Source of the DNA: Candidatus Versatilivorator sp.
Lineage (GTDB): Bacteria > Acidobacteriota > Terriglobia > Versatilivoradales > Versatilivoraceae
Assembly: GCA_965207735.1 (NCBI GenBank)
Contig: OZ242296.1
Location: 1,024,001-1,088,000, forward strand
Reading direction: 5' to 3'
Length of the DNA stretch: 64,000 nucleotides
Made by a program: the position numbers and the translations under genes. Shown here piece after piece: positions 53,251 to 54,719 of this stretch (positions within the stretch are counted from its first letter, which is position 1; the number at the start of each line of letters is the position of its first letter). Under the pieces are notes generated by a model that saw nothing but the letters and a program-made list of their open reading frames with translations, was not told the DNA's origin and did no database searches.

Positions 53251-53279
53251 AGTTTACATAATAAGGTTTTATCGGAAGT
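53251..53279 (-). other. dif-like XerC/XerD site 1 (11-7-11)
   Basis: Minus strand ACTTCCGATAA-AACCTTA-TTATGTAAACT; the right arm equals the B. subtilis dif arm TTATGTAAACT. Confidence 0.75.
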
Positions 53280-53752
53280 ACGCTGTTGCTATTTTGACTC
53301 CTAGGGTGGTAGGTTCTTCTCACTGATTCCCAAAAATTCAACCCATGTATCGAAGCGGAGGGAAGAGATGAAATTCCTTACCTTTCATCTTCCCCCGCCG
53401 CGGCAGGTAGGCGATAGATATTGTCGCGAGTATGGCGGCCGCTGCCCCATATCAATTTGCAACTGACGGTCTCGGAAACACCCTATGACAGTGTTGAAAT
53501 TAAACGGTGATCCCAAGCGTCGGCAGCGACCTAGTGAAAAATCTGGGTTTGAGCTGTTTCTAGAGGGGTTCCTGGGGTTTGTCTACGACGTCCTGATCCT
53601 GTGGAGGTAACGCCGACGTGGTCCCTGACCTACAACGTGGACTTGGACCGGCTGCTGCTGGAGCAGGCCACCCAGCGCCACGGCATAGCCTGACCCCGGC
53701 TCAAGTGGCAGTGCGTGAGTTATGTGAAATTGTGAGCGAAGCTGTAAAAGAA

Positions 53753-54490
53753 TCACTCAATCCCACTATTACGTATGAGATTAAGGCTGTGCGCATGCAC
53801 GGGTCGGCTCGACAAATCAAGCAGAAGCCTTTCCCGGAGCAGAGGTCTTCGCGTTTGGGACTGGAGTTGCTCCGGTCCGAAGGGCTTATCTTCGAGCAAG
53901 AGCAAGCGGCTCTTTGAGGTGTTTGAGCTTTGCTTAGCCGTTGGCTGGGTCGTGGGCGCAGGATCATCCCGGAGTTTGCGTGGCACGTTGTAGATGCCGC
54001 TCCATTTGGGTGATGCCAAAAAAGCTATAACTGTGGGTCCGCCAATGAAGAGGCCGTTGAGAAGCAATTTCCCCCACGGTTCGACATCGGACCCTGACTT
54101 GGCCACGGTAGGAATCGACACTGCGGTAGCAACTCCAAGGGTGATCCATCCAGGGTACCGTTCTGAAGGAGCGCGATACACTAGAACCTTTTCAACAGAT
54201 TGCTTCCGGAGAGTGAGCGTTTGCCCGGTCGGCGACAGGAGCATGATGGCCTCGGCCGAGGCCGACTGAAATTGTCCTTCAACCCTCTGAATGCCTCCAG
54301 GAGCCCGGTCCTTGTAGAGCCGTACCCTGGTGCGGGCTCCGGATGCAATTCTCTGCACCTTGGACCAGTCCCGCCTGATCCACGTTCCCGCTTCTGCCAC
54401 AGGCGCAAATCCAATCACAGTCAGGAGAAGCGCAAGTCCCGTAGCCGTGCTCTTTCTGAAAAACTTCCAAAAACTTGTGTTTGTCTTCAT
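53753..54490 (-). CDS. Exported/membrane hypothetical protein (probable homologue of 20687-21397)
   Basis: Signal peptide ending AEA, WSKV..G...RVEG domain, two hydrophobic segments, shared C-terminal motif. Confidence 0.72.
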   Translation of the reverse strand: MKTNTSFWKFFRKSTATGLALLLTVIGFAPVAEAGTWIRRDWSKVQRIASGARTRVRLYKDRAPGGIQRVEGQFQSASAEAIMLLSPTGQTLTLRKQSVEKVLVYRAPSERYPGWITLGVATAVSIPTVAKSGSDVEPWGKLLLNGLFIGGPTVIAFLASPKWSGIYNVPRKLRDDPAPTTQPTAKQSSNTSKSRLLLLEDKPFGPEQLQSQTRRPLLRERLLLDLSSRPVHAHSLNLIRNSGIE

Positions 54491-54690
54491 TGCCACCCCG
54501 AGTCTTACCTGATTGACACATTGGGACCTTTTCGGAAGTGCACGGGCACAGCACGGGATATCAATCAATACTTGTTCTGTGTGCATGCACTCCCCCGCCC
54601 CACGATTTCTTTGGACAGTGATTTGAGAAACTGCATGAGAAGTTGGCCTAGCCGGCCAGGTCCTGCACGTCCTCGTCGCCAGCGTGTAGA

Positions 54691-54719
54691 AGTTAACATA
54701 TTCAACTATTATCGGACGT
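54691..54719 (-). other. dif-like XerC/XerD site 2 (11-7-11)
   Basis: Minus strand ACGTCCGATAA-TAGTTGA-ATATGTTAACT; same orientation as site 1, arms match it at 19 of 22 positions. Confidence 0.68.

Follow-up and report, generated by a model that had tools for sequence, protein, structure and literature searches.

Exploitation of the host Xer machinery has so far been known in two forms, namely, large elements at dif (IMEX) and inverted pdif modules with 6-bp spacers that are unable to excise singly. As described in the accessible text of the respective reports, pdif modules occur in inverse alternating orientation (C and D modules), have 6-bp spacers and require matching spacers (PMC13141974, 10.1101/2024.04.09.588662); the attP site of the VGJ phage is 29 bp long and is used by XerC only, without homology on the XerD side (PMC4246890); and accessory sequences can take part at xrs 28-30 bp in length, the use of FtsK being shown for the 28-bp ones only. 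The same body of work includes 10.1101/2024.04.05.588136, PMC12907356, 10.1101/2022.12.17.520857 and PMC5357621. In this literature, covered mainly as open-access main texts so that supplementary site tables could list some cases, no description of direct arrays of 29-bp dif-like sites was found, nor was a paper found that bears the genus name Candidatus Versatilivorator.

The window (the whole 64,000-nt stretch of DNA that was analysed, G000:1024001-1088000 in the closed 5.26-Mb chromosome of the genome under study, G000; G-numbers below 14 denote its congeners) contains a block of dif-like sites (Table 1, minus-strand reading). A first-pass annotation described this block as a one-gene cassette between two directly repeated sites. 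The two repeats, sites 1 and 2, are indeed in the same orientation, 1440 bp apart, with 19 of the 22 arm bases and three of the seven spacer bases identical; the hairpin proves stable (-13.7 kcal/mol, z -3.7, none of 200 shuffles equally stable); and the window contains no match to PF00589. However, a third site that is absent from that annotation, in the same orientation and scoring 29.4 bits, stands between the two repeats, so that the block is a decayed array with remnants of at least three cassettes, starting with A and site 2, continuing with the collapsed cassette, site 3 and the gene, and ending with the fused D leader, site 1 and a. Nor is there support for regarding a 7-bp spacer as non-canonical for Xer sites generally: plasmid xrs have centres of 6-8 bp (10.1101/2024.04.05.588136), and the VGJ attP has a total length of 29 bp (PMC4246890). 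Like xrs, the sites combine an 11-bp XerC arm, a 6-8 bp centre and an 11-bp XerD arm that match the host dif in a genome with both XerC and XerD, and they are candidates for binding and recombination by these enzymes.

Table 1. Features of the dif-like array block, in window coordinates
Feature	Position	Strand	Remarks
Flank type a, conserved non-coding	53147..53250	-	next to the XerD arm of site 1, closing the array downstream; palindromic CCACAAGATGTTGTGG motif
Site 1, 11-7-11 dif-like	53251..53279	-	ACTTCCGATAA AACCTTA TTATGTAAACT; arms equal to genus dif arms
Leader type D	53280..53373	+	ends in ribosome-binding-like motif and ATG (53368)
Hairpin (inverted repeat)	53355..53401	+	overlaps start codon of the D leader
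Cargo gene, 244 aa	53753..54487	-	normal 3' end and downstream site lost (see text)
Site 3, dif-like	54511..54539	-	ACTTCCGAAAA GGTCCCA ATGTGTCAATC; 23 bp ahead of gene start
Collapsed cassette	54540..54690	-	type b head, repeat and 3' tail of a cargo-family gene
3' tail of second gene of the cargo family	54540-54590	-	
Repeat of ~55 bp in collapsed cassette	54591-54642	-	9 further copies in G000; probable insertion-sequence end
Type b head of collapsed cassette	54643-54690	-	
Site 2, 11-7-11 dif-like	54691..54719	-	ACGTCCGATAA TAGTTGA ATATGTTAACT
Platform type A, conserved non-coding	54720..54817	-	next to the XerC arm of site 2, opening the array upstream

The ends of the block have counterparts elsewhere. 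Flank a of the window shows 82% identity to G000:180778-180911 and belongs to an alignment of 12 copies from seven genomes; platform A is 76% identical to G000:3867945-3868091 and also aligns with others in 12 copies, from eight genomes, one of them joined to the G010 dif. Both are candidate accessory sequences. The flanks produce no Rfam matches to structured RNA at E 0.1, and two weak promoter-like matches were found in the platform against 1.0 expected. Leader D (80% identical to G000:3867152-3867278, with more copies in L001 and L002) elsewhere heads cassettes with a gene reading away from the XerC arm; in the window copy, there is only a 32-codon frame. In run X3, flank a is joined to D, with a different downstream start, in one contig. 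Next to the block, positions 52012-53103 of the window are occupied by an RHH/DUF6364 and PIN toxin-antitoxin pair plus a short ORF without a family match.

The start of the cargo gene, originally placed at 54586, most likely lies at 54487, judging from the paralogues. The encoded protein matches no Pfam or NCBIfam family, its Atlas clusters are unnamed, and a structure search finds no fold match at E 0.001, with Hfq/Sm-like folds appearing only at E 0.03 or worse. The structural model (pLDDT 65) predicts an N-terminal signal-like helix, a small beta-barrel and two hydrophobic helices; inspection of the N-terminus together with this low-confidence model makes the product a candidate exported protein. 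The family includes 70 homologues and is represented in all 14 genus genomes, being expanded across the genus, with most of the copies lacking a site at either end; a metagenome scan with the cargo protein identifies two loci, the strong one (L285) without a flanking site. The homology of the window gene to its 85% identical paralogue at G000:3866156, which is preceded by the same spacer as in site 3, stops at 53787, shortly before the end of the paralogue and its next site; the downstream site of the window gene thus was probably deleted.

By the convention established for B. subtilis, the left arm of dif belongs to XerC and the right one to XerD. The chromosomal dif is located at G000:700804 (ACGGCCGATAA GATATC TTATGTAAACT), near the GC-skew peak at 720 kb, with flanks common to 10 congeners; the 6-bp site of G009 shares flanks with that of G005. 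There is one such syntenic 6-bp site per genome, accounting for 11 of the 6-bp matches, one per congener, and the dif arms in the genus are mostly ACTTCCGATAA and TTATGTAAACT, the same as in site 1. The window sites themselves were rejected as the chromosomal dif, the true one being single-copy, 376 kb away and with a 6-bp spacer, against 7 bp in the window. XerC and XerD of G000 pass the respective cut-offs (TIGR02224, 336.5 versus 335.15; TIGR02225, 354.1 versus 329.6). The G000 XerD (G000:C1:674484-675626, L047) is 380 aa long owing to a tandem repeat of ~40 residues within its N-terminal domain; the xerD frames encode 409 aa in G002, 396 aa in G006 and 305-317 aa in G005, G008, G009, G010, G012 and G013, a lengthening that does not follow the number of sites. 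The cumulative GC skew of G000 has two minima (3.5 and 4.5 Mb), which suggests a large inversion or an assembly rearrangement.

With a weight matrix and a threshold of 20 bits, 23 matches are identified in G000 (16 with 7-bp, four with 6-bp, two with 5-bp and one with 10-bp spacers) compared with two in the reversed-genome control, the best of which scores 21.8 against 42.1 and 37.2 for the two window repeats; the matrix was trained on 14 of the G000 sites and the test is circular for those, so that the exact pattern in relatives provides the independent evidence. Exact 7-bp sites are present in seven of the 13 congeners, with no control matches, and in none of 27 other relatives or 300 other sampled genomes of the phylum. 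When spacers of 5-9 bp are allowed, the pattern yields 43 matches in 12 of the 14 genus genomes and none in the control: 27 with 7-bp spacers, 13 with 6-bp spacers (11 of these being dif), two with 8-bp and one with 5-bp spacers; 7-bp spacers thus account for 27 of the 32 non-dif matches. Neighbouring sites less than 3 kb apart are direct repeats in 14 of the 15 genus pairs, and in a second G000 array at 3.865-3.870 Mb, six sites point the same way and one is inverted. Of the 45 non-dif sites, 25 have the stop of a long ORF no more than 60 nt ahead of the XerC arm, the corresponding figures being 12 of 45 for the other strand and 20% for random positions, with the stops concentrated 6-12 and 20-25 nt ahead of the arm; past the XerD arm, by comparison, there is no enrichment of ORF starts (12 of 45 versus 41% at random). 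The genus-wide cassette-like system built on the host dif arms is real. The Xer-dependent cassette system proposed at the outset is partly supported by this analysis, in that the arms are those of the host dif, paired and arrayed sites recur in relatives, the cargo varies behind the same platform, and the host XerC and XerD pass the NCBIfam cut-offs; the single cassette between two sites does not.

Among the flanks of the 57 genus sites collected for clustering (35 with 7-bp, 17 with 6-bp and five with other spacers), the types on the XerC side are platform A, 3' ends of Sel1-repeat genes, 3' ends of window-family genes and leader D, and those on the XerD side are flank a, head b, the window-gene head and a ribosome-binding-like head that leads into Sel1 starts. 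Blocks A and a, each ~100-130 bp long, are non-coding and conserved and have the CCACAAGATGT motif in common, and arrays in which both ends survive run from A (XerC side) through the cassettes to a (XerD side). Every left flank type meets several right types; flank a follows three left types and six unrelated sequences, and the window-type cassette has three different upstream neighbours in G000. For the platform pair of G000 and G002, compared at the A-side DNA, the site and the cargo, ~1 kb of A-side DNA is common to both (92% identity overall and 97% over the last 300 nt), and past the XerC arm, four of the seven spacer bases differ and the cargo is unrelated (47%). The chromosomal dif of G010 has an A flank attached on its XerC side but retains the 6-bp spacer and the chromosomal right flank; this is the case at one of 12 dif loci and is seen from one junction, the second one not being assembled. 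As judged from these alignments, the conserved flank types have been recombined at the site. Given that gene order differs between relatives, the host Xer enzymes likely swap genes here. On balance, we consider it likely, if far from assured, that 29-bp, same-direction copies of dif separate single-gene modules that the host XerC and XerD recombine as an integrase-less cassette system. Several observations count against this view, namely, the missing enrichment of ORF starts past the XerD arm, the many cargo-family copies that lack sites, and, as detailed below, the lack of a spacer match between adjacent sites, the absence of the block from orthologous intervals and the failure to find a circle or unambiguous empty junction in contigs.

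The arrays are also decayed, with insertion-sequence ends, truncated genes and one site carrying an internal deletion (G000, 182.1 kb), and the window locus is a hotspot of toxin-antitoxin genes and insertion sequences, which would be compatible with sites that are no longer active, as remnants of past insertions, or at which XerD docks without recombining them, the mosaics having arisen by RecA exchange and IS-driven deletion. Docking has a parallel in Bacillus where, according to the available text of PMC9226527, XerD binds extra loci and unloads SMC. Nevertheless, this explanation appears very improbable because the arms are near-perfect throughout and the spacers and flanks are variable, flank a is joined to unrelated left flanks exactly at the site, the orientation is direct and the ORF stops cluster as described above, and one genome harbours as many as 131 sites (see below).

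There is a tendency for the spacer to go with the flank on the XerD side. Spacer identity is 0.73 for the 12 site pairs that share only the right flank, 0.53 for the 18 that share only the left one and 0.81 for the four that share both. A conditional permutation test (21 sites) links spacer positions 5-7 with the class of the right flank (p 0.003) but not with that of the left (p 0.34), and positions 1-3 with both (p 0.006 and 0.025); these p-values overstate the association because site pairs share descent and the 21 sites are not independent. Adjacent sites show no excess match at the three XerC-proximal spacer bases (0.41 for 13 pairs versus 0.40 for random ones), although the present neighbours of a site need not be its original recombination partners.

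In the proposed mechanism of host-driven exchange, XerC alone would swap one pair of strands at the left edge of the spacer, without FtsK and probably aided by a protein bound to flanks A and a, after which replication would resolve the junction, as with the attP of the VGJ phage and cer. The new junction would then take the spacer of the incoming right-hand partner, such being the expected product of a XerC-only cut at the left spacer edge followed by replication. The extra base and the mismatched spacers would keep the sites off the FtsK/XerD-first pathway and slow their loss; it is plausible, as suggested in the first-pass annotation, that unlike spacers lock a cassette in place. A point against the XerC-only reading is that RecA exchange in long homologous left flanks would leave the spacer with the right flank, too.

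Identical spacers do occur at both ends of a cassette in G009 (TATTCGG twice) and of a cassette pair in G005 (AGTCCCA twice), and two spacer classes recur in G041, a genome outside the genus discussed below. These cases would fit a canonical, two-strand XerCD reaction that requires the spacers of the partner sites to match, whether it proceeds by cointegration and resolution, as with pdif, or excises pairs of units; in this scheme, spacers would represent compatibility classes and mismatches would result from later drift or two-step swaps; Acinetobacter xrs, according to the accessible text on these sites, need identical or closely related central regions (10.1101/2024.04.09.588662, PMC13141974). 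We nevertheless find such a scheme unlikely to account for the arrays: the spacer difference between the G000 and G002 platforms contrasts with only 3% flank divergence, near-identical ends of Sel1 genes carry unrelated spacers depending on what follows (TATGGGG in G009, AAGTGTCA in G002), and in G010, a flank of the 7-bp class is fused to the 6-bp dif.

The search for a dedicated enzyme yields 39 matches to PF00589 in G000, which comprise XerC, XerD, the genes of ~30 P4-like integrases and pieces of a small tyrosine recombinase family (~320 aa); no dedicated integrase was found beside the sites, and no IntI-type gene was recognised at any array. The P4-like genes (e.g., 1541917-1543200; ~30 copies in G000, many 80-97% identical) are dispersed in the manner of an insertion sequence. 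In the small family, C-terminal fragments repeatedly begin right after sites or flanks b or a (G000:1188312 and 1940020; G009, L031:14526; L033:7516-8034). Lambda-type integrases typically have a 7-bp overlap. Together with the small-family fragments that start within tens of bases of several sites and the P4-like genes located within 1 kb of three of the 23 G000 sites, this could indicate that a tyrosine recombinase of a mobile element, from either family, acts alone or with the host XerD; the available text of PMC11014353 describes an Acinetobacter transposon whose XerC-like protein works with the host XerD at a dif-like site. However, involvement of such an enzyme seems improbable. The three apparently intact copies of the small family (one in G011 and two in G009) have no site within ~7 kb, and nine loci of this family that were scanned include a single site, ~2.5 kb off; G000 has only broken copies (e.g., at 5008.8-5009.6 kb); both arms, the XerC arm included, are dif arms; the palindromic flank motif is absent from the ends of the P4-like genes; and 19 viral contigs with one 29-bp site each show no recombinase match within 3 kb. 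Thus, with the intact copies lying away from the sites, the host Xer enzymes are the simplest reading.

The block is absent from the orthologous interval of 11 of the 13 congeners (all except G007 and G012), and no empty single-site allele was found at the orthologous locus of these 11. In nine congeners, the stretch compared is free of sites; in G003, there is one past the neighbouring ORF, and the one present in G010 is degenerate. Hence the platform itself arrived by another route. The congener intervals (L093-L104), up to a DHDPS-family gene, by inspection contain varied small genes and toxin-antitoxin-like and IS-like pieces, which makes the interval a hotspot. In the Logan contigs of six runs, there is no excised circle or unambiguous empty junction; the contig joints in runs X1 and X2 are read as paralogous loci of the same genome, and runs X3 and X5 carry a-side and A-side pieces with partial coverage. 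Flank a has no match among plasmids.

Beyond the genus, a GTDB scan with the exact pattern, which fits only the present arm sequence, retrieves 102 stretches; among the 80 listed are Ectobacillus, Planococcus, Ammoniphilus and other Acidobacteriota. Ectobacillus panaciterrae (G041) has 131 dif-like sites and G042 has 42, with no control match. In 14 loci of these genomes (13 in G041 and one in G042), 47 of the 48 close neighbour pairs are direct, and the enclosed ORFs are co-oriented in 24 cases and opposite in seven. At 85 G041 sites, the length and sequence of the spacer follow the right flank: of the 37 sites that share one right-flank motif, 33 have a 7-bp spacer of the form ..ATG regardless of what is on their left, and a 6-bp spacer is present at all 19 sites with a hairpin right flank. 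A composite unit in G041 (L215-L224, L229-L231) and G042 consists of a 6-bp CACTGA site, a hairpin-like spacer of 56-59 bp, a 7-bp TGANATG site and a palindromic CATGTATA motif; the dif-like site of G041 itself is at G041:C19:46245.

The single sites on the viral contigs mentioned above are as expected for IMEX-like attachment or resolution sites. Several unrelated phyla (L120, L148, L152, L170, L182 and L187) have single 29-bp sites of the form ACGTCCGATAA-N7-TTATGTAAACT with AT-rich motifs downstream, which might represent either attachment sites of IMEX or chromosomal difs with a 7-bp spacer. One Acidobacteriota genome has five identical 7-bp sites (AAAGCAA) with identical flanks on G045:C20 and other contigs (L127, L135, L173), apparently parts of a repeated element. 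As a tentative and rather doubtful generalization, these arrays might represent a widespread, integrase-free counterpart of the integron, that is, chromosomal cassette libraries of 29-bp dif copies that would be run by the housekeeping XerC, replication and an accessory protein, and that would have expanded independently in Bacillota and in this genus, where they would shuffle predicted secreted genes along with those for Sel1 and ankyrin.

If correct, direct 29-bp arrays with platform ends would be a third mode of Xer exploitation, in which one-gene cassettes, invisible to integron finders, are moved by an enzyme that most bacteria own. Sel1 and ankyrin repeat genes are often tied to host interaction in sponge symbionts, and given that such genes are among the cargo, the arrays offer a testable route to their rapid turnover. 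For direct tests of the mechanism, a cultured type strain exists in E. panaciterrae, with its 131 sites.

With VGJ-type IMEX of Vibrio cholerae, which form tandem arrays at dif1, the system has in common the 29-bp dif-like site, the lack of its own recombinase and presumed reliance on the host XerCD, the spacer pattern expected of XerC-only exchange and, in G010, a flank fused to dif. Unlike IMEX, the cargo in the genus consists of single genes of ~0.1-2 kb rather than phage genomes, and the arrays occupy many loci far from the terminus, the window block not being located at dif; furthermore, adjacent sites lack the 3-bp match (0.41 against 0.40) that would correspond to the XerC-side homology needed for integration of CTX and VGJ. 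The Acinetobacter pdif/dif modules (xrs cassettes, chromosomal islands) are similar in that numerous dif-arm sites delimit accessory genes, the spacers vary, the modules are shuffled and there is no dedicated recombinase. The sites described here cannot be classed with pdif modules, which are defined by inverse alternating orientation and 6-bp spacers: spacers in the genus are mostly 7 bp, neighbours are direct, as they are in Ectobacillus, and the platform ends are conserved. With cer and psi, the plasmid resolution sites, they share a spacer longer than 6 bp (8 bp in cer) and a conserved non-coding block by the XerC arm, and differ from them in being multi-copy, chromosomal and gene-bounding, with a second conserved block on the XerD side. 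As in integrons, single-gene cassettes in direct repeat, with stops near the site, vary behind one conserved head platform. Unlike integrons (IntI, attI, attC, CALINs), the arrays have no IntI-linked recombinase nearby, and the sites are short dif copies for which attC-like single-strand folding was rejected (z scores of -0.4 to 0.9), so that the system falls outside this class. The arrays are integron-like in layout and probably VGJ-type IMEX-like in chemistry.
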